From contig CAMVON010000006.1 of the NCBI GenBank assembly GCA_947169155.1, positions 987 through 64,986 of the forward strand: 64,000 nucleotides of DNA. Direction: 5' to 3'. The stretch is from an uncultured Clostridiaceae bacterium. GTDB taxonomy: Bacteria > Bacillota > Clostridia > TANB77 > CAG-465. The number at the start of each line of letters is the position of its first letter. Position 1 is the stretch's first letter. Position numbers and translations under genes: made by a program. A model generated the notes under the pieces. It was given only the letters and a program-made list of their open reading frames with translations, ran no database searches and was not told the DNA's origin. Shown here one piece after another: positions 2,077 through 40,851 of this stretch.

Positions 2077-2313
2077 ATGGATACAGTTTTAGAGAAAGTA
2101 AAAGAAGTTATTAGTGAACAATTAGACGTAGAAGACGTAGATTCAATAACAACTGAAACTACTTTTATTGATGACTTAGGAGCTGATTCACTTGATATTG
2201 TTGAATTAATTATGGCTTTAGAAGAAGAATTTGATATGGAAATTCCAGAAGAAGAAGCTGAAAAAATTACATCAGTAGGAGATGTTGTTAATTATATTGA
2301 AGATCATCAATAA
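2077..2313 (+). CDS. acpP: Acyl carrier protein
   Basis: A 78-aa acidic protein with the phosphopantetheine-attachment motif [21 protein letters not shown]; the RBS aaggagg is upstream. Confidence 0.93.
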
Positions 2314-2332
2314 TAAATTGTTGAAAATAAAT

Positions 2333-2365
2333 TGTGCCTTAGATTATTCTAAGGTACTTTTTTAT
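2333..2365 (+). terminator. Hairpin (ccttag/ctaagg) plus T6 after acpP
   Basis: The stem is at 2337-2342 and 2349-2354, and the ttttttatt run begins at 2358. Confidence 0.55.
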
Positions 2366-2415
2366 TGAAAAATATTTAATTGTAATATATAATGTAATGT
2401 GAAAGGAGTGAATTT

Positions 2416-3129
2416 ATGGAAAGAGAAAGATTACTTGAGTTAGAACAAAAGTTAAAGTATATTTTTAATAATCATGATTTGCTTAAAATGGCTTTAACAC
2501 ACAAATCTTATGCCTATGAGCATGAAGACCCTAATTATGATAAATATAATGAAAGAATTGAGTTTTTAGGAGATGCAATACTTGAACATATTATTTCAGA
2601 TTTGTTATTTGCACAAGTACCAGAACTTGCTGAGGGGGAAATGACTAAAAAACGTGCTGCAATAGTTTGTGAAGCTTCTTTATCTCAAGCATTGAAAAGA
2701 ATTGGAGGACATGAGTATATATATCTTGGTAAATGTGAGCAAAATTCTAATGGAAAAATGAAGGATGCTATTGTCGCTGATGCTTTTGAAGCTGTTCTTG
2801 GGGCAATATATCTTGATGGTGGTTACGAGATAGCAAGAGATATATGCTTAGAGTTATTAGATCAAGAAATTAAAACTGTTTTATCTGGTGGAAGTTTAAA
2901 TACAGATTATAAAACACAATTACAAGAAATATTACAACGTAATGGCAGTGTTAAAATAGAGTATCGCTTAGCTGGTGAAGAAGGGCCAGAACATGATAAA
3001 ACATTTACAATTGAAGTGTTCTTTAATGATAAGAAAATTGGAACTGGAAAAGGAAAAAGTAAAAAACAAGCTGAGCAAGAAGCTGCTCATCATGCAATAA
3101 TAAATGGAAGTGAAGTATTTGGAAATTAG
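2416..3129 (+). CDS. rnc: Ribonuclease III
   Basis: The RNase III signature ERIEFLGDAILEH is present, followed by a C-terminal dsRBD (KTQLQEILQRNG...GTGKGKSKKQAEQEAA). Confidence 0.95.
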   Translation: MERERLLELEQKLKYIFNNHDLLKMALTHKSYAYEHEDPNYDKYNERIEFLGDAILEHIISDLLFAQVPELAEGEMTKKRAAIVCEASLSQALKRIGGHEYIYLGKCEQNSNGKMKDAIVADAFEAVLGAIYLDGGYEIARDICLELLDQEIKTVLSGGSLNTDYKTQLQEILQRNGSVKIEYRLAGEEGPEHDKTFTIEVFFNDKKIGTGKGKSKKQAEQEAAHHAIINGSEVFGN

Positions 3130-4135
3130 ACTAGATTTAAATGCGGAATTAAAAAATTTCATAAATAAAGATAACCAATATACTATCCCTATTTTTATTC
3201 CACATAAAGGTTGTCCACATGCATGTGTGTTTTGTAATCAAAGACGAATTAGTGGAACAATTAAAGATACAACTGTGGAAGATGTGGATAACATTATTAA
3301 AGAATATTTAGAATATTATCTAAATACAGACAAAAAGATTGAAGTTGCCTTTTTTGGAGGTAGTTTTACTGGAATAGATATTAAACTTCAAGAAGAATAT
3401 TTACGTGTTGCATATAATTACATTCTTGAAGGAAAAATAGATAGCATTAGATTGTCTACTAGACCAGATTATATAAATGATGAAATTTTAACTTTACTTA
3501 AAAAATATGGCGTTAAAACAATTGAGCTTGGTGTTCAATCTATGGATGATAATGTTTTGATGCTTGCTAAACGAGGTCATACAAAAGAAGATGTTGTTAA
3601 AGCATCAAAATTAATTAAAAGTTATGGTATTAGACTTGGACATCAAATAATGATTGGACTTCCAAATAGTACAATTGATACTGAAATATATACTATTAAA
3701 GAATGTTTAAAACTTAAACCTGAACAACTAAGAATATATCCAGTATATGTAATAGAAGATAGTGAATTATATGATATGTATGAAAATAATGAATATATAC
3801 CACTAACAATTGCTGATGCTGTAAAAAGATGTGTCGAAGTTGTTCATGAATGTCAAAAAAGTGATGTGCAAATTATACGTTTAGGGCTTCAAAGTACAAA
3901 TGAAATTACATCTAAAAATGCAAATATTTATGGCCCTGTTTCAGATAATTTTGCTGAATATGTTATGGCTGCTTTGATACGTGATAGAATAGATAAGGAA
4001 AATATTAATAATGAGGATATAGTAGTTTATGTACCTAAAAGATATGTTAGTGCTACTATAGGCCCAAAAAAAGTTAATAAAATATATTTTGAACAAAAAT
4101 ATGGAGTAAAATATATTGTAAAAGGAGAGGACTAG
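3104..4135 (+). CDS. Radical SAM protein (Elp3/TIGR01212-like Fe-S oxidoreductase commonly found next to rnc in Clostridia)
   Basis: The CxxxCxxC motif GCPHACVFCNQ sits near the N-terminus. The ORF overlaps the rnc stop; alternative GTG/TTG starts at 3110 and 3119 are possible. Confidence 0.75.
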   Translation: MEVKYLEIRLDLNAELKNFINKDNQYTIPIFIPHKGCPHACVFCNQRRISGTIKDTTVEDVDNIIKEYLEYYLNTDKKIEVAFFGGSFTGIDIKLQEEYLRVAYNYILEGKIDSIRLSTRPDYINDEILTLLKKYGVKTIELGVQSMDDNVLMLAKRGHTKEDVVKASKLIKSYGIRLGHQIMIGLPNSTIDTEIYTIKECLKLKPEQLRIYPVYVIEDSELYDMYENNEYIPLTIADAVKRCVEVVHECQKSDVQIIRLGLQSTNEITSKNANIYGPVSDNFAEYVMAALIRDRIDKENINNEDIVVYVPKRYVSATIGPKKVNKIYFEQKYGVKYIVKGED

Positions 4136-4600
4136 ATGAAGAAGGTAATTTTTGCTGCAAGTTCAGGTGGACATTTAACAGAGCTTCTAAAAGTTCAAGA
4201 ATTGTTTAAAGAATATGATTATTTACTTGTAACTGAGATGACAGATGTAACTCGAGATTTAAAAGACAAATATAATATTAAATATGTAGATTATGGTCCA
4301 AATAAAAATAAAATTAAGTATTGGTGGACAATATTTAAAAATCTAGCTAAAGCTATAGGTATTGTTGCTAAATTTAGACCAGATACTGTTGTGTCTACTG
4401 GTGCACAAGTTGGTGGATTTTTCTGCTATATTGGGAAATTCTTTGGTGCAAAGGTTATATATATAGAGACTATGGCAAAAATTAAAGAACTTTCTGGTAC
4501 AGGACATAATGTATATAAAATTGCAGATAAGTTTTATGTGCAATGGAAAAGCTTAGAAGAAAAATATGAGAAAGCAGAATATATAGGAAGGTTGATCTAG
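4136..4600 (+). CDS. Alg14-like / PssD/Cps14F-like glycosyltransferase accessory (membrane-anchoring) subunit
   Basis: N-terminal AASSGGHLTELLKV (the GGH motif of Alg14 family members); about 150 aa; immediately followed by the Alg13-like partner. Confidence 0.7.
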   Translation: MKKVIFAASSGGHLTELLKVQELFKEYDYLLVTEMTDVTRDLKDKYNIKYVDYGPNKNKIKYWWTIFKNLAKAIGIVAKFRPDTVVSTGAQVGGFFCYIGKFFGAKVIYIETMAKIKELSGTGHNVYKIADKFYVQWKSLEEKYEKAEYIGRLI

Positions 4601-12275: not shown

Positions 12276-13288
12276 AATTCATTGTATATTTGTTCAACAT
12301 AACTCATGTTATTTTTTACCATGTTTATATATTGTGGTGCAAGTTCTGGATCAAATTGAGTTCCTGCACCTTTTTCTATTTCTGTAAGTGCAAACTCTAT
12401 TGTTTGCCCTTCCTTATATGTACGTTTTGATACTATTGCATCAAAGGAGTCACATATAGTTAATATTCTTGCTAGATATGGTATTTGTTTTCCTCCAATA
12501 CCAGCTGGATATCCTTTTGAATCATATCTTTCATGATGATGATACATTATTGGATAAATATCTTTATATATATCTGATACTGAAAAAATATTTGCAGCAA
12601 TTACTGGATGAGTTTTAATAACGTTATATTCTTCATCTGTAAGTCTTGATGTTTTTAATAATATATTGTCTGGTATACCAATCTTTCCTATATCATGGAA
12701 AGCAGCTGCAATTTGCAAGTCAGATTTTTGTCTTTGATCTAAATTCAAGTAGTTTGCAAAAGCAATACATAATAGAGTTACTCTTCTTGAATGTTCTTCT
12801 GTATAATGATCCTTAGCTCCAATTGTTTGTAGTAGAATTTTTGCAAAATCTACTAAGTAATGATCCAATTGGTTGTTCATTGTTTTAATTTTATTTATTT
12901 GTTCAATGTACTTTATTCCTCCTTGAATAAGCAATATTAGATTATCAAAGCGATTACTTTTTTCATAGTAAGCTTGTATATCTAAATGTTGCATAGTTTC
13001 AATGGAAGGTGCTAGGTCTTTATGAATAGACATTAGAATTATATATATTTCTTTATTAAATTCTCTGACTGTTTCTACAATTTTATCGCCTTTTACTGGT
13101 GTCATCAAATAGTTGACAAGTAAAATATCATATTTATTTCTTCTGAGTTCCTCTATAGCTGCTAGGGGTTCAGTGTATGTTTTCACTTCGTGTCCATACC
13201 TTCTTAATACAACAGAAAGAACATCCATCATATTTACGTCGTCATCGATAACTAGTATTTTGGCTCTAACTAATTTATCGTTATTCAT
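12272..13288 (-). CDS. Response regulator with HD-GYP domain (c-di-GMP phosphodiesterase, RpfG-like)
   Basis: N-terminal REC domain (ILVIDDD...D...K). C-terminal HD (AAFHDIGKIGIP) ... HHHERYDSKGYPAG, which is the GYP signature. Confidence 0.85.
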   Translation of the reverse strand: MNNDKLVRAKILVIDDDVNMMDVLSVVLRRYGHEVKTYTEPLAAIEELRRNKYDILLVNYLMTPVKGDKIVETVREFNKEIYIILMSIHKDLAPSIETMQHLDIQAYYEKSNRFDNLILLIQGGIKYIEQINKIKTMNNQLDHYLVDFAKILLQTIGAKDHYTEEHSRRVTLLCIAFANYLNLDQRQKSDLQIAAAFHDIGKIGIPDNILLKTSRLTDEEYNVIKTHPVIAANIFSVSDIYKDIYPIMYHHHERYDSKGYPAGIGGKQIPYLARILTICDSFDAIVSKRTYKEGQTIEFALTEIEKGAGTQFDPELAPQYINMVKNNMSYVEQIYNEF

Positions 13289-13308
13289 ACATTTTCACCT
13301 ATGCGTAT

Positions 13309-13337
13309 AGTATAACAAATTATGTCAAAATAATCAA
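13309..13337 (-). promoter_or_regulatory. Minus-strand sigma-A type promoter TTGATT-17-TATACT for the HD-GYP regulator
   Basis: Read on the reverse complement: cttgatt attttgacataatttgt tatact, followed by ...aggtgaaaatgt ATG. Confidence 0.45.
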
Positions 13338-13397
13338 GATAAACATTGTATTCAAACTACATAATTAAAGATTTTTCACTAAAAATTGAAAATATGC

Positions 13398-13426
13398 TTG
13401 ACAAAACATCAAAACAGCATTATACT
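13398..13426 (+). promoter_or_regulatory. Orphan plus-strand near-consensus promoter TTGACA-17-TATACT inside the 425-nt intergenic region (points antisense into mecA)
   Basis: TTGACA at 13398-13403, a 17-nt spacer and TATACT at 13421-13426. There is no plus-strand CDS downstream for about 1 kb. Confidence 0.35.
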
Positions 13427-13680
13427 TTATGCGGCTTTTTAAAGAAGCTGCTAATCAATCCAAAAATAACAAAAAAATTCATACTAATTTTTATATAAAT
13501 AGCTCAGTCTAAACGAGTTTATTTTTAATCACATTTATTTTATTCAAAAGAATTCTATAATATAGTATAGTGTTTTATAAATACAAAAATATAAACCAAA
13601 TTTCAGTTTTTTGTTTATTTAATTTAATATACTATTTTTTCTATTAATTTTTAAAATATAATGTGTGTATATAATTTTCT

Positions 13681-13708
13681 AAAAAAAGAGCAGGCTTTAT
13701 AGCCTGCC
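13681..13708 (-). terminator. Rho-independent terminator of mecA (gcaggct-ttat-agcctgc, T-run on minus strand)
   Basis: The stem is at 13690-13707, and aaaaaaag at 13681-13688 reads as a U-run on the minus strand. Confidence 0.75.
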
Positions 13709-13713
13709 TAAAT

Positions 13714-14304
13714 CTAAATCTTAGATAATTTGTGTAGAGCTCTGTTTTGAATAATTACAGATCCTTTTTCTGAAATTGTTGCATAGTGCATGTCATATGC
13801 ATAGTATCTTGAACAGAACTCACTCATCATAACATACGTTTTAATAAAACGTTTATTTCTAATAGCACTTTCACTAAATAATAAGAAATATTTATCTTGG
13901 TACTTATATAGTGTATTAGTTCCAAAAAATAGGCTTTCACTTTTTGCTATTTTGCAAAAATCTAGAATTGCATCAAGTGAATTAAACTCATATAGACGAG
14001 AGTCTATCCTATATTGCACTTTACCTTTCTTTTGGTAACTATTTATATCTGGTAGTGAATCTGTTTTTGTTATGGTTAAAACAAATGTATTTGTATTATC
14101 CGCAGCAGCTTCAATAAATAGCTGAGAGTCTTCGTTATCTATAAATTCTTCATCTAGATTTGACTCTTCTATTAATGACTTAAAGAAATTTCTTGCAAGT
14201 GAGTTGTTCATTTGCAATTCAGATATAGATATATTTCTCATCTCAAGTTCTTCAAGAGATAGTATTATTTTCACTTTATTTTCGTCAACTTTTTCTATTT
14301 TCAT
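13714..14304 (-). CDS. mecA: Adaptor protein MecA (ClpC adaptor / negative regulator of competence)
   Basis: N-terminus MKIEKVDENKVKIILSLEELEMRNI and C-terminus YKYQDKYFLLFSES...ATISEKGSVIIQNRALHKL follow the B. subtilis MecA pattern (MEIERINEHTVKFY...EYGKLIISEHALETIKKHF). Confidence 0.8.
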   Translation of the reverse strand: MKIEKVDENKVKIILSLEELEMRNISISELQMNNSLARNFFKSLIEESNLDEEFIDNEDSQLFIEAAADNTNTFVLTITKTDSLPDINSYQKKGKVQYRIDSRLYEFNSLDAILDFCKIAKSESLFFGTNTLYKYQDKYFLLFSESAIRNKRFIKTYVMMSEFCSRYYAYDMHYATISEKGSVIIQNRALHKLSKI

Positions 14305-32949: not shown

Positions 32950-35061
32950 ATGGAAGATTTAGAGTATGAAAAGCAAAAACTTGAAAATGTTGAGTCAAAT
33001 TTGGAAGACATTCAAAAGGGAGAAGAAGAAATTCTTAGGGATTTACCTAAAAAATATGGTAGTAATCCTGTGCTTCTGGCAAATCTAATGAGTACATCAG
33101 CTACTAAAATTGCAAATATACAAAAAATTAAAGAAAAACCGTATTTTGCAAGAATAGATTTTAAGGAAGATAAGAAGAATACTAAAGATAAGCTGTATAT
33201 AGGAAAAATTGGAGTTACAGACTTAAATGGAAGAGTGGTAGTAACTGACTGGAGAGCTCCAGTATCCACATTATACTATGATAGCAATCTAGGACAAGTT
33301 GAATATGATGCACCTTATGGAAAAATTCATGGAGAGTTATCTTTAAAAAGACAAATTATTATTCAAAATAAGAAGATTGAATCAATTTTTGATGTTGATT
33401 CAGTATCGGATGACGAGTTATTGAAACCTTATCTTGGAGCAAGCGCAGATAGTAGACTTAAAAATATAGTTGCTTCAATACAAGGAGAACAAAATGAAAT
33501 TATTCGTAAAAATATTGAAAAGAACTTAATAGTTCAAGGTGTTGCAGGTAGTGGTAAAACTACAGTAGCACTGCATAGAATTGCGTACTTGATGTACAAT
33601 AATTCAGATAAATACAAGGCTAATCAATTTATGGTAATTGGCCCAAACAAATTTTTTATCAATTATATATCTAATGTTTTACCGGATTTGGATGCTTCAA
33701 ATGCGGTACAATTGACGTATGAAGAACTTGCTTCAAATTTTATTGGAGAAAAGATTTCATATGAGGATTCAACTAAAAAGCTAAATGATATTATTGATGG
33801 AAGAGACACAATTTCTAATGTTAAATATAAGACAACACTTGAGTATAAAGATTTACTAGATAAATATTTAAATACTATTGAATATGATATTATTGCAGAT
33901 AATGGTCTTGTAATTAATGATGTTTGCGTATTAACTAAAGATGAAATTTTAGAGGTATATAAGCAAACACAAGGTGAGAGTATAAAGCAAAGATTAGATA
34001 TTGTTGCTCGTAGAATTGCAAATAATATAAAAAATGATGATGAAATCTATTCTAGAGTAAAATCTCAAATGGATGCTTTAGAACTTGCTCAAACAGATGT
34101 TGAACAAAGACGAAAGATAATAAAAAAAGAATTAGATATGCTTAAAGATCTTAATAATACGGGCTTTGAAAAACAATTAAAAAAATTACTAGATATATCT
34201 AATTTAAAAGTAATTCCAATTTACCAAAAATTTGTTGAAAGTGTGGATAACATTCCTGAAATTATACGTAGTTCAACAGTTAAATCTTTAAAATCTAGAG
34301 TAATAGAAAACGAAGATATAGCACCAATTATGTATATAAAATTAAGATATTTTGGAAATGAGGAATTTAAAAATATTAAATGTGTAGTAGTCGATGAAGC
34401 ACAAGACTTTGGCGTGTTTAGTTACTACATTTTAAGAAATGTGCTAAATCAAGCAAATTTTTCAATATTTGGAGATCTTGCTCAAGGCATTTATTCATAT
34501 AGAGCAATAGAAAATTGGCATGATATACAAGATGGCATTTTTGAAGATTCTGAGTACTTAAATCTTAGAAAATCTTATAGAACTTCTATAGAAATAATGA
34601 GTGAGGCTAACAAGATATCTTCTGCAATTAATCTTGGTGAAGCAAAACCAGTAATTAGAGAATCTGGACCTGTTATTAAAACTAAAGTAGATAGTAAATC
34701 TAAAAATGAATATATTGCCAAAAAGGTTAAAGACTATCTAGATGATGGATATAAATCTATTGCTATTGTATATAAAAATCAAACAGAAATGGCAAAAATT
34801 AGTAAATTGTTGAAGGAGAAAAATATAGATAATGAAATAATATACAAGGATCAAGAAAAGTATAATGGTGGAGTTTGTATATTAACTTCATATTTGTCTA
34901 AAGGTCTTGAGTTTGATGTTGTTATTGTTGCAGATTCAGATGAGTCTAATTATGTAAGTAGCAATGTATTAGATATGAAATTACTATATGTTGCAATGAC
35001 TAGAGCACTTCACAAATTAGAGCTTATTTATACAGATAAAATTTGTAAATATTTAGTTTAA
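32950..35061 (+). CDS. helD: HelD (helicase IV-like UvrD/Rep superfamily 1 helicase; RNA polymerase recycling factor)
   Basis: N-terminal coiled region, then VQGVAGSGKTTVALHRIAYLMYN (Walker A) and C-terminal UvrD-like motifs. The start is at 32950 with RBS aaggagg. Confidence 0.8.
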   Translation: MEDLEYEKQKLENVESNLEDIQKGEEEILRDLPKKYGSNPVLLANLMSTSATKIANIQKIKEKPYFARIDFKEDKKNTKDKLYIGKIGVTDLNGRVVVTDWRAPVSTLYYDSNLGQVEYDAPYGKIHGELSLKRQIIIQNKKIESIFDVDSVSDDELLKPYLGASADSRLKNIVASIQGEQNEIIRKNIEKNLIVQGVAGSGKTTVALHRIAYLMYNNSDKYKANQFMVIGPNKFFINYISNVLPDLDASNAVQLTYEELASNFIGEKISYEDSTKKLNDIIDGRDTISNVKYKTTLEYKDLLDKYLNTIEYDIIADNGLVINDVCVLTKDEILEVYKQTQGESIKQRLDIVARRIANNIKNDDEIYSRVKSQMDALELAQTDVEQRRKIIKKELDMLKDLNNTGFEKQLKKLLDISNLKVIPIYQKFVESVDNIPEIIRSSTVKSLKSRVIENEDIAPIMYIKLRYFGNEEFKNIKCVVVDEAQDFGVFSYYILRNVLNQANFSIFGDLAQGIYSYRAIENWHDIQDGIFEDSEYLNLRKSYRTSIEIMSEANKISSAINLGEAKPVIRESGPVIKTKVDSKSKNEYIAKKVKDYLDDGYKSIAIVYKNQTEMAKISKLLKEKNIDNEIIYKDQEKYNGGVCILTSYLSKGLEFDVVIVADSDESNYVSSNVLDMKLLYVAMTRALHKLELIYTDKICKYLV

Positions 35062-35107
35062 GATAAAAAAAGATAGTGACCTTAAAATCACTATCTATTT
35101 TTTTTGA
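35062..35107. terminator. Strong bidirectional terminator (agatagtga-ccttaaaa-tcactatct) shared by helD (+) and the SASP gene (-)
   Basis: A 9-bp perfect stem flanked by A7 upstream and T9 downstream. Confidence 0.85.
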
Positions 35108-35112
35108 TTTAA

Positions 35113-35328
35113 TTAGTTATTTGAATTGTTTTGCATTTGGTTTGCAGCGTTAGCTACAAGTCTTTTAACCATTTCACCACCAACTGAACCAGCTTCTTTA
35201 GATGTTAAATCTCCATTATATCCTTGTTTAAGATTTACTCCGATTTCGTTTGCAACTTCATATTTGAATTTGTCTAAAGCTGCTTTAGCTTGTTTGTTAG
35301 TCATTTTGCTATTTGTAGAGTTAGCCAT
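35113..35328 (-). CDS. Small acid-soluble spore protein, alpha/beta type
   Basis: KFKYEVANEIGV...GYNGDLTSKEAGSVGGEMVKRLV is the alpha/beta-SASP signature. The start is at 35328 with RBS ggaggtg. Confidence 0.9.
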   Translation of the reverse strand: MANSTNSKMTNKQAKAALDKFKYEVANEIGVNLKQGYNGDLTSKEAGSVGGEMVKRLVANAANQMQNNSNN

Positions 35329-35376
35329 GTTTGAATTCACCTCCAATTTAAGTATTAAAGTGTTAACACTTTACAT

Positions 35377-35408
35377 TAGTAATGTGTGCAAATTTTTATT
35401 ATTCATAC
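35377..35408 (-). promoter_or_regulatory. Forespore-type (sigma G/F-like) promoter GTATGAATA-N15..18-CATTACTA upstream of the SASP gene
   Basis: The minus-strand read agtatgaataataaaaatttgcacaCATTACTA fits the sigma-G consensus GHATR-N17-18-CATNNTA. Confidence 0.4.
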
Positions 35409-35451
35409 TAAAAAAAGTTTAAATTATTATTTAAAATAATAATTTGAAAAT

Positions 35452-35458
35452 TTCGACA
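35452..35458 (+). promoter_or_regulatory. Perfect Spo0A-box heptamer TTCGACA (reverse complement TGTCGAA) about 30 nt upstream of the spo0A -35
   Basis: Exact match to the 0A-box consensus. A single 7-mer can occur by chance in 64 kb, so this is suggestive only. Confidence 0.3.
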
Positions 35459-35488
35459 AAAATAGTGCACGAAAAATTGCTTTTTTAC

Positions 35489-35517
35489 TTGATTTTACTC
35501 GCTTTCAATTGTATAAT
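35489..35517 (+). promoter_or_regulatory. Sigma-A type promoter TTGATT-17-TATAAT for spo0A
   Basis: -35 at 35489-35494 and -10 at 35512-35517. Confidence 0.5.
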
Positions 35518-35556
35518 AGTGTTGCTTTATAGGATAGACTGGAAATGGAGCACAAA

Positions 35557-36345
35557 ATGGATAATAAAAATAATTTTAAAATTATGATTGTTGATGATAA
35601 CAAAGAATTTGTTAAATTATTAAATATGTACATCAACACACAAAAAGATATGATTGCGCTTGATCCTTTATATGATGGAACAAACGCAGTTTCAGCCATA
35701 AAACAGTCGAAACCAGATGTATTACTACTAGATGTAGTAATGCCAGAAAAGGATGGCCTTACTGTACTTGAAGAATTAAATGATGAAGTGGGTATGGACA
35801 AGCCAACTATTATTATGATGTCTGCAATAGGACAAGAAAAGATTACTCAAAAAGCTATATCACTAGGTGCTACATACTATGTAGTTAAACCTTTTGATAT
35901 GATTACTCTAGTAGATAGAATTAGAGATATTTTAACAGAAACAGAAGAAGTTAAAAATGAATTTATGGTAGCATATGGTAATAAAAATTTACCAATTGAG
36001 GTAAGAGTTACTCAAATGATACATGATGTTGGTGTGCCAGCTCATATTAAAGGATATCAATATATTCGTGAAGCTATCATTTTGGCGGTAGAAAATGAAG
36101 ACATACTTAATTCTGTTACTAAATCATTATATCCAACTCTATCTTCAAAATTTAATACAACGCCATCTCGTGTTGAAAGAGCAATTAGACATGCTATTGA
36201 GGTTGCTTGGAATAGAGGACAAATAGAAATGCATGAAAAGATTTTTGGGTATACAGTTAACTCAAACAAAGGAAAGCCAACTAATTCAGAATTCATTGCT
36301 ATGATAGCAGATAGAATAAGATTATCTGAAAAAGTTGCAGTATAG
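35557..36345 (+). CDS. spo0A: Stage 0 sporulation protein A (master sporulation response regulator)
   Basis: REC domain (IMIVDDNKEF...DVVMPEKDGL), then the Spo0A-specific C-terminal effector domain GVPAHIKGYQYIREAI...SRVERAIRHAIEVAW...KPTNSEFIAMIADRIRL. The start is at 35557 (GGAG 6 nt upstream) or 35545. Confidence 0.9.
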   Translation: MDNKNNFKIMIVDDNKEFVKLLNMYINTQKDMIALDPLYDGTNAVSAIKQSKPDVLLLDVVMPEKDGLTVLEELNDEVGMDKPTIIMMSAIGQEKITQKAISLGATYYVVKPFDMITLVDRIRDILTETEEVKNEFMVAYGNKNLPIEVRVTQMIHDVGVPAHIKGYQYIREAIILAVENEDILNSVTKSLYPTLSSKFNTTPSRVERAIRHAIEVAWNRGQIEMHEKIFGYTVNSNKGKPTNSEFIAMIADRIRLSEKVAV

Positions 36346-36389
36346 TTTTTGAAAAGAAAATATAATGTAAAAATTATATTTTCTTTTTT
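36346..36389 (+). repeat. 44-nt terminator-like hairpin, copy 1 (tttttgaaaagaaaatataat-gtaaaa-attatattttctttttt)
   Basis: A 13-bp perfect stem aagaaaatataat/attatattttctt plus a T-run. Identical to 38227-38270. Confidence 0.85.
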
Positions 36390-36390
36390 A

Positions 36391-36420
36391 TTGTAAAAAG
36401 TTATGTTTTTATTATATAAT
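36391..36420 (+). promoter_or_regulatory. Candidate promoter TTGTAA-18-TATAAT driving the cassette
   Basis: -35 at 36391-36396 and -10 at 36415-36420. Confidence 0.35.
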
Positions 36421-36436
36421 TGTTTTGGTGATAATT

Positions 36437-36544
36437 ATGGGATATTATGGTAGAGGATCTGGACAGATTCAAATTTTAATAAATAAAAATATGCAGTTAG
36501 TTGGTATTAATATGCAAGGTGGACATCATGCTGAACAAGAATAA
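36437..36544 (+). CDS. Small 34-aa ORF with RBS (GGTGA); same frame as, and separated by a single TAA from, the downstream 364-aa ORF
   Basis: MGYYGRGSGQIQILINKNMQLVGINMQGGHHAEQE then TAA at 36542-36544. The frame stays open (FEGDDPELENQSFEDTIVKDSKDIC) up to the annotated ATG at 36620. Confidence 0.3.
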   Translation: MGYYGRGSGQIQILINKNMQLVGINMQGGHHAEQE

Positions 36545-36619
36545 TTTGAAGGAGACGATCCAGAGCTAGAAAATCAATCTTTTGAAGATACTATAGTAAA
36601 AGATTCAAAAGATATATGC

Positions 36620-37714
36620 ATGGTAAAAACAGAAGACGGAAGAATAATTGTTTTTTCAGGAGATTCTGAACATGAATATACTCCTGAAGAAATACAAGGT
36701 ATTCTTAATGATATTAATTATCATAAGAATGATGATAGAGCTATTTTAGAAAATAGCGGAGCATCAGATTTTGACTTGATGCTTAATATGAAAAAAGATT
36801 TAGAAATTTTAGAAAGTGATAGACCACAAGAAGAAAAAGATATTTTATTAAGTGATAGAAAGTCTATTTATGGTACTTGGGAAAAAGGCGGAAAATTTGC
36901 TATGGTTTCTCAAAATGAACAAGGTGCAAAAGACTTAGCTGAATTATTTGAAAATATTGAAAGAGGCAATGTTTCTGTGTCTACAAATCCATATGTAAAC
37001 AATGAAAATTACAATAATCCTCGTAGTATGTCTTTTACTATTGTAGATAGACTTAAAGAAATGAAAAAGGAAGAACAAGAAATAGAATCTAAAGAAACAT
37101 ACGAAGAAAATGATAAAAAAGATTTAACTCAAGAAGAAATTGAAAATGCTGTTGAAATAGATAATTATAGTGATGCAGATTCTAAATTGTCTAGTAGAAT
37201 TGATGCAATGAACCATCCAGAAGAACAAGATGAAAAATATGAAAAAAATTCAACTAAAAAAGGTGAGATTTTTATTAGTGATGATGAGAACAAAAAAGGT
37301 GAGTATGCAATAGGCGATTTTTTTCAAAATGATGGATATAAGGATGTTTTTGAATTTTATTCTTTAGATGGTAAAGATAAGAGCCTTGGATATTTATCAT
37401 ATTTTGAAAGAACAGGAAAAAGTATTTCTCCTGAAGAAGTTGATAAGCTTAAAGAACAAGTTGAAAAGTATGAACACGAACAATATGAAAAAGAGCAAAA
37501 AGAGTCAGATCTTCAAGAAATGACAGATGAAGAGCTAAAAGAAATTTTTGACAATGAGACACCACAAAAAGAATCTTTATTTAAAATTGCGTCTAGACAA
37601 ACAAAAAAAGCAATAGATAAAATTTCTTCTTTATTCAAATCTAGAATTAAAGATTATAAAGAAAAATCTCAAGATGAACCTAATAAAGATGAGAATGATA
37701 TTGATATAGATTAG
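36620..37714 (+). CDS. Hypothetical highly acidic (E/D/K-rich) protein, possibly the 3' portion of a gene interrupted by an in-frame stop at 36542
   Basis: A 364-aa ORF with no recognised domain and no convincing RBS at its own ATG. Confidence 0.45.
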   Translation: MVKTEDGRIIVFSGDSEHEYTPEEIQGILNDINYHKNDDRAILENSGASDFDLMLNMKKDLEILESDRPQEEKDILLSDRKSIYGTWEKGGKFAMVSQNEQGAKDLAELFENIERGNVSVSTNPYVNNENYNNPRSMSFTIVDRLKEMKKEEQEIESKETYEENDKKDLTQEEIENAVEIDNYSDADSKLSSRIDAMNHPEEQDEKYEKNSTKKGEIFISDDENKKGEYAIGDFFQNDGYKDVFEFYSLDGKDKSLGYLSYFERTGKSISPEEVDKLKEQVEKYEHEQYEKEQKESDLQEMTDEELKEIFDNETPQKESLFKIASRQTKKAIDKISSLFKSRIKDYKEKSQDEPNKDENDIDID

Positions 37715-37723
37715 GAGGTATGT

Positions 37724-38191
37724 ATGGAAAGTACAATATATTTAAATTCACTTTCAGAGTTAAGTGAAATTATAAAAAACTTAGGTGAGAAAATTAGAGC
37801 TAAGATTCCAAATGATGTTATTGATTATATTGAAAATAATAAATCACAAACTTATAAATGGAATTATAATCCTGATTTACCTTTAGATGAACAAAATATG
37901 CTTCCTGAAACAGAAGAACTTTTGACTGCAATATATAGAGATTATATTTGTACAGATGCTGAAAAAGAAAAAGTTGATGAAGTTCTTGTTGATAATGAAA
38001 ATTATATAGAAGAAAGTAATAGAAACGTAATTGAAAACGAAAAAATAGAAAAAAGTCTTAATGTAGATACTATTGCTCAAAATTATAAGTATAGGGAAGA
38101 AGAATTTATTTCTAATTCCCCTGCAATAGTTGAAAAACAAAACTTTTTTGTAAAAATAATTAATAAAATTAAATCTATTTTTAGTAAATAA
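37724..38191 (+). CDS. Hypothetical protein (155 aa)
   Basis: Good RBS taggaggtatgtATG; no recognised domain. Confidence 0.45.
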   Translation: MESTIYLNSLSELSEIIKNLGEKIRAKIPNDVIDYIENNKSQTYKWNYNPDLPLDEQNMLPETEELLTAIYRDYICTDAEKEKVDEVLVDNENYIEESNRNVIENEKIEKSLNVDTIAQNYKYREEEFISNSPAIVEKQNFFVKIINKIKSIFSK

Positions 38192-38226
38192 GCAAATATT
38201 GTTTTTTAATCTAAAAAACAATATAA

Positions 38227-38270
38227 TTTTTGAAAAGAAAATATAATGTAAAAATTATATTTTCTTTTTT
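38227..38270 (+). repeat. 44-nt terminator-like hairpin, copy 2 (identical to 36346-36389)
   Basis: A perfect direct repeat of copy 1, followed by a T7 run. Confidence 0.85.
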
Positions 38271-38326
38271 TGTGCTTATATAGGTATTTTACGTATTTCA
38301 AAGGCCCTTGAAACCCTTTATTTTAC

Positions 38327-38355
38327 TTGACATTTATTAATATTAATAGTACAAT
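38327..38355 (+). promoter_or_regulatory. Sigma-A type promoter TTGACA-17-TACAAT for gdpP
   Basis: -35 at 38327-38332 and -10 at 38350-38355. Confidence 0.5.
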
Positions 38356-38393
38356 ATAATGGAATTATAGGGAGAAAAGGAAGTTTGAGTTTT

Positions 38394-40370
38394 ATGGCAA
38401 AAGATTCTAGAAAAAAATCCGGATTTTTTAAATCTTTATTAACCAAAATAATTATAATTGCTTTTATTCAAATAATATGTGCAATTGTATCAATAATATT
38501 CCCATTATCGCTTTTCATAGACATTGCGATAATTGTTTTATTATGCCTTTTTGCCATAGGAATGTGTATTGTTGAGTTTAAAAATAAAAAATTCAGACTT
38601 GGCGAAGTATCTAAAAATGTAGATGTAATTTTTAAAGATTCTTTAAATCTTATAGATATTCCAATGGCAATTGTTGGAACACAAGGAAATATTATTTGGA
38701 AAAATGCATCTGCAGATAATTTATTAACAGATGATTATATTGAAAAATCTGCAATTAAACTTGAAGGACTAAAAAAGAAAAATGTCAATTCTAGTATTCT
38801 TGAGGAAAGTCCAGATGGAGATATATATAATGTAATTTGTAATCCAATTAGATTTGAAGATTTTGATTGCTTACTTGTATCATTTATAGATAAAACTTAT
38901 GAGACAAGTTTAAAACAAAGCTTAGAAGATTCTAGAGTAGCAATTGGTATGCTTTTTGTAGATAATTATGAAGAAACATTACAAGGTTTAGATGAAATGC
39001 AAAAAGCAGAAGTTAAATCTGTATTAACTAAAGAAATTAGAAGCTGGGCAAGAGAAAATCAAGGGGTTCTTGCAAGATTAGATAAAGATAAATATGTTGT
39101 ATTTGTTGAGAAAAAATACATAGATAAGATGGAAGAAAATTCTTTTGATATCTTAGAAAGAGTTAGAAACTGTACTAATTTAACTAAACTTCCAATAACT
39201 GTTTCTCTTGGTGTTTCTTATTCAGAAGATACACTTGAAGATAGATACAATGCTGGTAGTTCTGCATTAGACATTGCTCTAGGTAGAGGTGGTGACCAAG
39301 CAGTTGTTAAAAAGGATAAAAAATATGATTTCTTTGGTGGTTCAAATGCAGGACTTGAAAAAATAAGTAAAGTTAAAGCAAGAGCGGTGGCTCAAGCTTT
39401 TAAAGAGCTGGTTGAAAAATCTGAAAACGTTTATGTTTGTGGACATAGAAATTCAGATTTAGACTGTATTGGTGCTGCAATAGGTGTTGCAAGAATTGCT
39501 AGATATTTAGGTAAAGAAGTAAAAATTGTTGTAGATGGAAAGCCAACTGCTTCAACTCAAGGAGTAATAGAAAAAATTCAATATAGTGAAGAATATAAAG
39601 ATACATTTGTAACATATGCAGATATTAGAAATGATGATTTTACTAATAGTTTACTTGTTGTAGTAGATACACATAAACAATCATATTTAGTAGAACCAGA
39701 TTTGTTAGATCATATAGAAAATGTTGCTGTAATAGACCATCATAGACGTGGTCCAGAATTTATAGAAAAAGCAGTGCTAACATATCATGAAATATATGCT
39801 TCAAGTGCTACAGAACTTGTTGCAGAATTAATAATGTTACTTGAAGGAATAGAATTATCATCTAATGAAGCAGAATGTATGTATGCAGGACTTGTTGTAG
39901 ATACTAAAAACTTCATGTTCAAAACTGGTGTTAGAACATTTGAAGTAGCTGCTTTCCTTAAAAAATTTGGTATAGATGTAGCCGAAATTAAGCTTCTATT
40001 CCAAAATAATTTTGATACTTATGTAACAAAAGTAGATATAGTTAAAAATGCTAAATTCTATAAAGATAACATTGCTATCTCTATGACAGATGCACAGCAC
40101 AAAGATATGCCAATTATTGCAGCACAGGCTGCAGATGAACTATTATCAATTTCAGGTATTCAAGCATCATTTGTGCTATGTATGGTAGATGGTGTTGTAA
40201 TGATATCTGGTAGATCAATGGGAGATATAAACGTACAAACTATTCTAGAAAAAATAGGTGGTGGCGGACACTTAACATTTGCTGGAGCCCAAATTGCAGG
40301 TGTTGAGTTAGAAGAGGCTAAATCTAGACTTTTAGATAGTATAGATGAATATTTAGAGGATAATGAATAA
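38394..40370 (+). CDS. gdpP: Cyclic-di-AMP phosphodiesterase GdpP (YybT): 2 TM + PAS + degenerate GGDEF + DHH/DHHA1
   Basis: N-terminal TM helices; a DHH motif block (VCGHRNSDLDCIGAAIG...VVVDTHKQSY...IDHHRRGPEF) and C-terminal DHHA1 (GGGGH). Conserved position upstream of rplI and dnaB. The start is ATG at 38394; the ORF-track start at 38385 is a TTG. Confidence 0.88.
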   Translation: MAKDSRKKSGFFKSLLTKIIIIAFIQIICAIVSIIFPLSLFIDIAIIVLLCLFAIGMCIVEFKNKKFRLGEVSKNVDVIFKDSLNLIDIPMAIVGTQGNIIWKNASADNLLTDDYIEKSAIKLEGLKKKNVNSSILEESPDGDIYNVICNPIRFEDFDCLLVSFIDKTYETSLKQSLEDSRVAIGMLFVDNYEETLQGLDEMQKAEVKSVLTKEIRSWARENQGVLARLDKDKYVVFVEKKYIDKMEENSFDILERVRNCTNLTKLPITVSLGVSYSEDTLEDRYNAGSSALDIALGRGGDQAVVKKDKKYDFFGGSNAGLEKISKVKARAVAQAFKELVEKSENVYVCGHRNSDLDCIGAAIGVARIARYLGKEVKIVVDGKPTASTQGVIEKIQYSEEYKDTFVTYADIRNDDFTNSLLVVVDTHKQSYLVEPDLLDHIENVAVIDHHRRGPEFIEKAVLTYHEIYASSATELVAELIMLLEGIELSSNEAECMYAGLVVDTKNFMFKTGVRTFEVAAFLKKFGIDVAEIKLLFQNNFDTYVTKVDIVKNAKFYKDNIAISMTDAQHKDMPIIAAQAADELLSISGIQASFVLCMVDGVVMISGRSMGDINVQTILEKIGGGGHLTFAGAQIAGVELEEAKSRLLDSIDEYLEDNE

Positions 40371-40404
40371 AAGTAAAATATAGTAATAGAGGAGGTAATT
40401 AAAG

Positions 40405-40851
40405 ATGAAAGTAGTATTAAATCAAGATGTAAAAGGAGTTGGAAAAAAACTCCAAATAGTTGAAGTAAGTGAAGGGTATGCTCGTAATTTTTTATTACCT
40501 AAAAAGTTAGCTGTTGTTGCAGATAACAAAAATTTAAATATGGCTCAAGGAAAGATAGATTCACAAAAATTTAAAAAGAAAACAGAACTTGAAGCTGCAA
40601 ATGAAAATAAGAAAATTATTGAAAATGGATTTATTGAATTTAGACATAAAGTTGGTGAAGGAAATAAGCTTTATGGAAGTGTTACAGAAAAAGATATAGC
40701 AGATAAAATTAAAGAAAAATTCAATATAGAAGTAAATAAAAAGAAAATTACTATATCTGATCCTATTAAATCATTAGGTTCATATACAGTAAATGTTAAA
40801 TTGTACGAAGGAGTAATAGCAAAGTTAAAAATATCAGTAGTAGGAATGTAG
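40405..40851 (+). CDS. rplI: 50S ribosomal protein L9
   Basis: MKVVLNQDVKGVGKKLQIVEVSEGYARNFLLPKKLA. Confidence 0.95.
   Translation: MKVVLNQDVKGVGKKLQIVEVSEGYARNFLLPKKLAVVADNKNLNMAQGKIDSQKFKKKTELEAANENKKIIENGFIEFRHKVGEGNKLYGSVTEKDIADKIKEKFNIEVNKKKITISDPIKSLGSYTVNVKLYEGVIAKLKISVVGM

Follow-up and report, generated by a model that had tools for sequence, protein, structure and literature searches.

The 64,000-nt stretch of DNA analyzed here (the window) comes from a contig of an uncultured Clostridiaceae bacterium and carries, between the sporulation regulator gene spo0A and the gene gdpP, a two-gene cassette bounded by two copies of a hairpin-forming 44-nt sequence, TTTTTGAAAAGAAAATATAATGTAAAAATTATATTTTCTTTTTT. 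We call the two genes A and B. In the nearest relatives the order is the same, running from a uvrD-like helicase gene and a SASP gene through spo0A, A, B, and gdpP to rplI and dnaB, with both hairpins present. The features of the locus are the following.

35545 to 36345, + strand: spo0A, the target gene (Pfam Response_reg and Spo0A_C, E = 1.5e-44)
36338 to 36389, + strand: hairpin copy 1, spo0A terminator-like, from repeat search and fold (perfect 44 nt at 36346-36389; stem arms 36351-36366 and 36373-36388, loop 36367-36372, T-run after)
36391 to 36420, + strand: sigma-70-like promoter of the cassette, TTGTAA-18-TATAAT (consensus scan, 10/12 matches)
36437 to 37714, + strand: gene A, 425 aa if intact, broken in the window by a TAA at 36542-36544; family of 114 proteins
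37724 to 38191, + strand: gene B (155 aa), preceded by a separate GGAGG ribosome-binding site
38196 to 38224, + strand: terminator-like hairpin belonging to the cassette (13-bp stem, 3-nt loop, then TTTTT), directly 5' of copy 2
38219 to 38270, + strand: hairpin copy 2, the putative duplicate of the spo0A terminator (perfect 44 nt at 38227-38270), at the cassette end and 5' of the gdpP promoter
38327 to 38355, + strand: gdpP promoter-like element, TTGACA-17-TACAAT (11/12 matches), kept in occupied and empty loci
38385 to 40370, + strand: gdpP (Pfam GGDEF_GdpP, DHH, and DHHA1), annotated in relatives from the ATG at 38394

The two copies of the 44-mer are identical and lie in direct orientation on the + strand, as an exact search of the window confirmed for the first-pass annotation that had drawn attention to them; no third copy occurs in the 64 kb with up to 3 mismatches (chance expectation, 0). 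In a repeat search the match grew to 52 nt (2 mismatches), its left extension spanning the final codons and the stop codon of spo0A, and among repeats of at least 25 nt in the window this is the sole near-perfect one, so the earlier remark that no other intergenic element is duplicated in this way stands. The spo0A stop codon itself, at the left edge of the duplicated segment, is TAG in the window and TAA in all relatives. The transcribed hairpin is predicted to fold into a perfectly paired 16-bp stem, where 13 bp had been given before, with the 6-nt loop already described and a subsequent run of six to seven T (-14.3 kcal/mol; z = -5.1 against shuffles); copy 2 has the same fold. Stem-loop and T-run are those of an intrinsic terminator, and so is the position shortly 3' of the stop codon of a co-directional gene, the stem beginning 5 nt past the spo0A stop in copy 1 and 36 nt past the B stop in copy 2. 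The stem is not G+C rich, however: 1 of its 16 pairs is G-C and 1 is G-U, all others being A-T, in a genome of 29% G+C. No known RNA family matches positions 35000 to 38600 at E <= 1.

The cassette brings its own expression signals. Its promoter-like element, which the first-pass annotation had also seen, is kept in relatives L001-L008 and is predicted to be active, and a GGTGAT ribosome-binding site lies between it and the ATG of gene A at 36437. Overlooked earlier was the hairpin at 38196-38224, which folds together with copy 2 at -23.2 kcal/mol (z = -5.9). Its 3' arm contributes CAATATAA, which lengthens the repeat, and it shares a TATAA(TTTTT) microhomology with the end of spo0A. The G+C content is 27.9% in gene A and 22.9% in gene B, compared to 29.0% in the window. 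Downstream, the gdpP promoter has the conserved form TTGACA-17-TAMAAT in an alignment of the intergenic region across loci.

Mapping the spo0A-gdpP interval in relatives (loci numbered L001 onward), the nearest of which are all contigs assembled from gut metagenomes of cattle, sheep, and other sources, we found both occupied and empty sites. The cassette with its duplicated hairpin is present in 10 independent assemblies from several studies (L001-L008, L019, and L028), and copy 2 is identical in all relatives that bear the cassette. Ten other loci (L011-L018, L020, and L021) lack A and B, and in them spo0A leads through one hairpin straight to the promoter of gdpP and gdpP itself; nine of them (L011-L014, L016-L018, L020, and L021) represent about six more distant lineages, and the tenth, L015, is a contig from a metagenome-assembled genome (MAG) of the sheep duodenum, RGIG5622, in a lineage otherwise bearing the cassette. 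At the empty sites, a single hairpin joins the sequence to the left of copy 1 exactly to the sequence to the right of copy 2. This comparison, which the first-pass annotation had proposed as a check, gave the result expected from its suggestion that an insertion had duplicated the spo0A terminator. The second proposed check, a search for the 44-mer elsewhere, pointed the same way. When bacterial genomes, one for each species, were scanned for the hairpin pattern, it turned up in seven MAGs, all titled uncultured Clostridia and each with a single copy located after spo0A; a scan of metagenome contigs added four loci, likewise with one copy after spo0A. With one copy in each of these genomes and only two in the window, a dispersed motif is ruled out.

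The distribution of the cassette follows the relationships among the relatives. Nucleotide identities place the window with L001 in one lineage and L002-L008, L019, and L015 in its sister lineage, whose flanking genes are 88 to 96% identical to those of the window. L020 is an intermediate outgroup (94% amino acid identity in Spo0A), and the other outgroups are more distant (spo0A nucleotide identity of about 81%). Since the cassette is present in both sister lineages and missing from every outgroup, the simplest history is one gain in the common ancestor of the two lineages. Between them, synonymous divergence (dS) is 0.40 for A and 0.41 for B, within the range of the flanking genes (0.19 to 0.63), and the ratio of nonsynonymous to synonymous divergence (dN/dS) is 0.17 to 0.20 versus 0.01 to 0.08 in the housekeeping neighbors. 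These values indicate that the cassette is old, having been inserted before the sister lineages split and having diverged together with its flanks, and that its genes are under purifying, though relaxed, selection.

Two loci indicate what happened at the repeats later. L015 is 97.4 to 99.6% identical to the cassette-bearing L002 group in uvrD, spo0A, gdpP, rplI, and dnaB, yet it is empty. The most economical explanation is that recombination or slippage involving the two repeats later removed the cassette precisely; the locus would then be a presence/absence polymorphism now. L001 is a mosaic, of window type up to its position 2076, of L002 type from 2140 to 4244 (gdpP and its promoter), and again of window type from 4307. 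Its spo0A, A, B, and rplI are 97 to 99% identical to those of the window, whereas its gdpP is 97.3% identical to the L002 type versus 91.9% to the window. The left breakpoint (2076-2140, corresponding to about 38210-38290 in the window) falls on hairpin copy 2, and the right one (4244-4307, about 40370-40440 in the window) at the gdpP/rplI boundary. The invariant hairpin thus evidently offers an identical stretch in which lineages exchange DNA. Of the earlier idea that the cassette recombines via the hairpin, the loss in L015 and the breakpoint in L001 support the repeat-mediated part only; a dedicated recombination system finds no support.

The hairpin itself is conserved to an unusual degree. 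At four-fold degenerate sites of spo0A and gdpP, the window is 43 to 55% identical to distant outgroups, and the two sister lineages are 73 to 79% identical to each other, yet the 40-nt hairpin (36351-36388 and 38232-38269 in the window; L011-L021), loop included, is identical in every lineage bar three exceptions: a loop base in L016, a G-U-compatible A>G change in copy 1 of the L002 lineage, and a loop change in L019 and L028. Across both copies, the sister lineages differ at 1 position (the A>G change), versus about 20 or more expected if the sequence were unconstrained. The 4 to 5 bases between the stop codon and the hairpin vary freely, and so does the sequence past the T-run. The hairpin of B varies between lineages and is partly decayed in the L002 lineage, and in a control terminator, that after the SASP gene, the 9-bp base of the stem is kept and the loop and upper stem have changed. 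Both copies are therefore under strong constraint, kept nearly unchanged by purifying selection on their sequence, and this constraint is somewhat above what would be expected of a terminator alone.

Taken together, we propose an account of insertion with duplication of the terminator, vertical inheritance, and repeat-mediated loss, to which we give a probability of about 0.7; this figure covers the overall account, and the insertion mechanism itself is less certain. The ancestral layout in this clade of uncultured gut and rumen Clostridia would have been spo0A, one A/T-rich hairpin, the gdpP promoter, and gdpP. In the ancestor of the sister lineages, an A-B operon with its own promoter, ribosome-binding sites, and terminator would have entered at the 3' foot of the hairpin, and in the process about 50 nt would have been copied a second time, beginning with the TATAA of the spo0A stop codon and ending with the T-run of the hairpin. 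Copy 1 would still terminate spo0A, and copy 2, with the hairpin of B, would end the cassette, the original spacing of the gdpP promoter being preserved. Later, the 50-nt direct repeats would have permitted the precise loss seen in L015 and the recombination between lineages seen in L001.

Integrase, transposase, and relaxase genes are absent from the cassette and from the 10 kb on either side of it in the window and in the relatives, where the genes are those for ribosomal proteins, secY, uvrD-like, SASP, spo0A, gdpP, rplI, dnaB, tilS, ftsH, rpsB, tsf, and pyrH, and no recombinase turned up among the other window ORFs (open reading frames) that were checked. The cassette ends have no convincing terminal inverted repeats, only A/T-rich inverted matches of about 72% identity. 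Because no recombinase lies nearby, the mechanism of insertion is something we can only infer. Somewhat short of even odds, we favor a single illegitimate, microhomology-guided copy or repair event, with a dedicated recombinase less likely: synthesis would have left the chromosome past the T-run of the hairpin, copied A-B from a donor, and switched back onto TATAATTTTT at the end of spo0A, whereupon the hairpin was re-copied. The right junction shows microhomology between (C)AATATAA-TTTTT, at the end of the 3' arm of the B terminator, and GTATAA-TTTTT, at the end of spo0A. A donor locus with flanks matching ATTGTAAAAAG... and ...AAAAAACAATATAA would show the junction microhomologies.

Several points weigh against this account. 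The 5 to 10 bases of A/T-rich microhomology could be chance, and the template switch from a donor locus is a putative step. A hairpin-bearing circle recombining with the chromosomal hairpin would give the same 50-nt duplication. Termination at either hairpin copy is a prediction, and a consensus terminator scan did not report the hairpin because its stem has one G-C pair and the scan asks for at least three. The hairpin scans detect only loci and lineages that retained the sequence. L015 is a metagenome-assembled contig in which a repeat loop may have been skipped. Finally, the invariance of the loop exceeds the needs of a terminator and hints at an additional, sequence-specific role.

That A and B are simply conserved genes, followed by a terminator that resembles the spo0A terminator or was gene-converted to it, is hardly credible. 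The two sister lineages do share the four-gene order and near-identical hairpins, but ten loci are empty with exactly one hairpin and matching flanks, the repeat takes in the TATAA at the spo0A stop codon, and B already has a different terminator hairpin directly 5' of copy 2. If instead the cassette and both hairpins were ancestral to the whole clade, the empty sites would have arisen by several independent deletions. Precise deletion between 50-nt direct repeats should be easy, with L015 as one case in the L002 lineage, and the A-B pair must be old, as distant homologues occur in related Clostridia. Against one gain and one loss, however, such a history would need at least five to six independent precise losses (in L020, L011/L018, L012/L013, L014/L021, L016, and L017); the distant A-B pairs stand at unrelated loci without the hairpin, and an insertion with duplication would still be required at an earlier time, so we regard this history as very improbable. 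It is also unlikely, though the possibility deserves some weight, that the empty L015 site is an artefact in which the assembler skipped the loop between the repeats, with the cassette fixed in both lineages. L015 is a MAG contig, direct repeats make cycles in assembly graphs, and several assemblies fragment near the repeats into contigs of 1.8 to 1.9 kb. Such a skip is made unlikely by the G variant of copy 1 in L002-L008, L019, and L028, which leaves only 16 identical bases leftward, too few for k-mer collapse; a 50-nt repeat is routinely resolved in the other assemblies, and the junction is base for base what a crossover would produce.

A different reading of the hairpin is that it serves as an att- or attC-like site, with A-B and the hairpin forming a nonautonomous cassette moved by a recombinase encoded elsewhere. 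The insertion lies exactly at the hairpin, with a copy on each side and one in the empty site; the loss in L015 is apparently precise, the L001 breakpoint lies on copy 2, and the conservation of the hairpin, its loop included, goes beyond terminator need. In L024, L025, and L027, moreover, A-B homologues have genes for TnpV and Mob_Pre beside them, and in L030 a phage-type integrase gene lies at a distance of about 3 kb. Nevertheless, the 10 kb on each side contain neither integrase nor relaxase, be it in the window or in the relatives, and none turned up in those other window ORFs that were checked. Each of the seven species genomes has the hairpin a single time, behind spo0A, with no other cargo and no arrays, the nine outgroup loci are simply empty, and A-B pairs elsewhere are flanked neither by this hairpin nor by any repeat. 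The sequence lacks an attC core (no GTTRRRY) and has a perfect stem with no extrahelical bases. The short contigs of the cassette (1.8 to 1.9 kb; L028 and L029) are linear chromosomal fragments running into spo0A or gdpP flanks rather than circles, and the cassette has been vertically inherited since the lineages split. We therefore consider such a site quite unlikely. In a broader version, the hairpin would be a sequence-specific element, used for recombination or uptake or else bound as a regulatory site by a protein or RNA, and its sequence would be conserved through that recognition. It would steer cassette gain and loss and allelic exchange right next to the master sporulation regulator, A-B being one cargo of a hairpin-targeted system with a recombinase in trans undescribed in Clostridia; this version is a long shot.

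The genes carried by the cassette are of unfamiliar type. Neither A nor B has a significant match in Pfam, NCBIfam, PHROGs, or PADLOC, the sole borderline match being PHROG 33465, of unknown function, to 25 residues of B (E = 1.2e-4). Neither matches PDB sequence profiles, neither has a fold match, and neither was found in plasmid, phage, or IMG/VR viral collections. The first-pass statement that the two proteins lack a recognizable domain is borne out by these searches. Profile searches gather 114 proteins in the A family, one of them annotated merely as "unknown [Clostridium sp. CAG:269]". For B they give 3096 clusters at 50% identity with E <= 0.001, or 1110 with E <= 1e-10, and 0 of 10 cluster representatives looked up had a name. 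The predicted structure of A has a mean predicted local distance difference test (pLDDT) score of 52, with a moderate N-terminal alpha/beta domain, and that of B a mean of 67, with a good N-terminal helical domain. B (pI, or isoelectric point, 4.55; 155 aa, as first reported) continues from this helical domain through a variable linker to a C-terminal helix that is conserved, FFVKIINKIKSIFSK, and by sequence A and B resemble each other in having a basic amphipathic helix at the C terminus. In P0264, which belongs to the B family, a GGDEF diguanylate cyclase domain is fused to an N-terminal domain like that of B; from this fusion, the B-like domain may be a regulatory or interaction module.

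Gene A is interrupted in the window. The closest relative encodes a 425-aa A protein, 98% identical to that of the window, corresponding to an intact gene at 36437-37714, and this agrees with the first-pass suspicion that the first protein might be longer than its 364-aa reading frame. The in-frame TAA at 36542-36544 is a tyrosine codon in relatives (TAT in L001 and L002), reflecting either a single-base change private to this genome or a sequencing error. Programmed read-through or an altered genetic code is ruled out as an explanation, since the TAA is found only here and relatives have a tyrosine codon. The longest A ORF left in the window, at 36620-37714, encodes the acidic 364-aa protein noted earlier (pI 4.5), which has no obvious ribosome-binding site and lacks the first 61 residues, among them six invariant positions of a four-sequence A alignment. 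On these grounds, A is probably inactive in this genome. Elsewhere in the family, the typical form is either a single 381-aa protein or a 258-aa protein with a separate piece of 108 aa after it. Homologues split into 258-aa and 108-aa ORFs occur in L025 (6001-7162), L027, L031-L033, and L010 (8158-9322), and one 258-aa cluster has 374 member sequences; these could represent a conserved split or a recurrent frameshift.

B lies directly 3' of A in every locus examined, and the neighborhoods differ. The pair is next to glmM and mgtE in L009, a Fic gene in L010, and MFS and amidotransferase genes in L031-L033; no repeats flank the distant pairs in L009 and L010. In L022-L024, either radA-disA-PPIase or TnpV and Mob_Pre genes lie upstream and an MFS transporter gene downstream, and TnpV and Mob_Pre genes adjoin the pair upstream in L024 and downstream in L025 and L027. 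In L030, an HD-domain gene is upstream, with an acetyltransferase gene and the phage-type integrase gene about 3 kb downstream. Because the pair is constant while its neighborhoods vary, A-B is a portable module in variable regions, twice beside Tn4451-type mobilization genes. The first-pass view of the cassette as accessory thus holds, and a horizontal origin is plausible rather than demonstrated, given A-B pairs at other loci of related Clostridia. We regard A-B as an obligately paired, moderately constrained accessory module, and our best guess from these comparisons is that its two proteins would act as a complex.

Some side observations concern the surroundings of A-B pairs and of spo0A. 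In the Clostridium sp. CAG:269-like contigs L022-L024 (5663-8901), a 3.2-kb block of A, B, and the MFS gene is 99% identical, and its left or right flanks are wholly different, with core genes in one contig and TnpV and Mob_Pre genes in another, which indicates a mosaic variable region. In L030, a gene at 13196-13885, about 5 kb downstream of A-B, encodes a 229-aa response regulator with a weak Spo0A_C match, the phage-type integrase gene lying between. At the spo0A locus, the distant outgroups L012, L014, and L016 have one more gene between the uvrD-like and SASP genes (window about 35062-35112), for a protein of about 150 aa that is hydrophobic in an N-terminal segment; this gene is absent from the lineage of the window and represents another small indel in the same neighborhood. 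Over a longer distance (22506-45146), the order in the window is the S10/spc ribosomal operon, secY, the uvrD-like helicase gene, the SASP gene, spo0A, gdpP-rplI-dnaB, tilS, ftsH, rpsB, and tsf. This compact gene order and the 29% G+C suggest a small, streamlined genome in which spo0A lies beside the origin-proximal gdpP-rplI-dnaB block.

The locus shows at base resolution how two core genes can take up an accessory operon between them with neither disturbed: under the proposed history, the upstream gene retains its terminator, and since that terminator was copied, the downstream gene retains its promoter context. Later on, the same repeats let the cassette be removed cleanly. The analysis also flags two uncharacterized families, A with about 114 members and B with more than 1000 clusters, always together in small-genome gut Clostridia, and a hairpin 3' of spo0A conserved far beyond neutral expectation. 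The understanding of sporulation control and of mobile elements is unchanged unless the hairpin is a specific recombination or regulatory site.

Compared to known systems, literature searches for a described equivalent returned nothing relevant, and some kinds of element can be set aside. A DDE transposon or miniature inverted-repeat transposable element (MITE) is rejected by a duplication of about 50 nt versus 2 to 14 bp, the lack of terminal inverted repeats, and the single copy, and an IS200/IS605-type or palindrome-associated transposable element (PATE) by the empty sites, which keep the hairpin as a conserved spo0A terminator in all lineages. With Tn4451/Tn4453-type elements, which carry the excisionase-like TnpV and the Mob_Pre relaxase TnpZ, the link is that A-B homologues adjoin such genes in L024, L025, and L027; the window and close relatives have no such genes, and the proximity could stem from a variable region common to both and need not mean that A-B is cargo. 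Integron gene cassettes are similar as short cassettes between direct hairpin-forming sites whose loss leaves one hairpin, but here there is no IntI, attI, Pc, or array, and the cassette has its own promoter and two genes. Neither attC core sites (RYYYAAC ... GTTRRRY) nor extrahelical bases are present, the 44-mer containing no GTT and its stem being perfectly paired.

Closer likenesses are found among intrinsic terminators, illegitimate recombination between short repeats, and small genomic islets. As in an intrinsic terminator, a stem-loop is followed by a T-run on the coding strand and folds far better than shuffles; in contrast, the stem is almost pure A-T, and 40 nt including the loop are invariant despite saturated synonymous sites. 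Hairpin-forming repeats stimulate slipped-mispairing and template-switch events, and the 50-nt duplication, the junction microhomology, and the apparently precise loss in one lineage resemble illegitimate recombination between short repeats, although 1.84 kb of foreign sequence was brought in as well. Like cis-mobilizable elements (CIMEs) and small genomic islets that lie between attL/attR direct repeats at the 3' end of a gene, the cassette has flanking direct repeats of tens of bases with one copy in the unoccupied site, the repeat overlaps the stop codon of the target and leaves the gene intact, and the insert lacks a recombinase gene. Neither A nor B has the domains of a tyrosine or serine recombinase, none is encoded nearby, and the plasmid, phage, and viral collections hold no match. 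Unlike in CIMEs, no cognate integrase or parent element is known, the cassette is single copy and has been vertically inherited since its insertion, and the repeat is the pre-existing terminator of the target rather than sequence shared with a mobile element. Thus, the event is of a known kind, accessory gain and loss in a small islet bounded by direct repeats, of which it is a clean and fairly ordinary example; less usual is that no recombinase is involved and that an unusually conserved terminator hairpin, belonging to the target gene itself, serves as the repeat.

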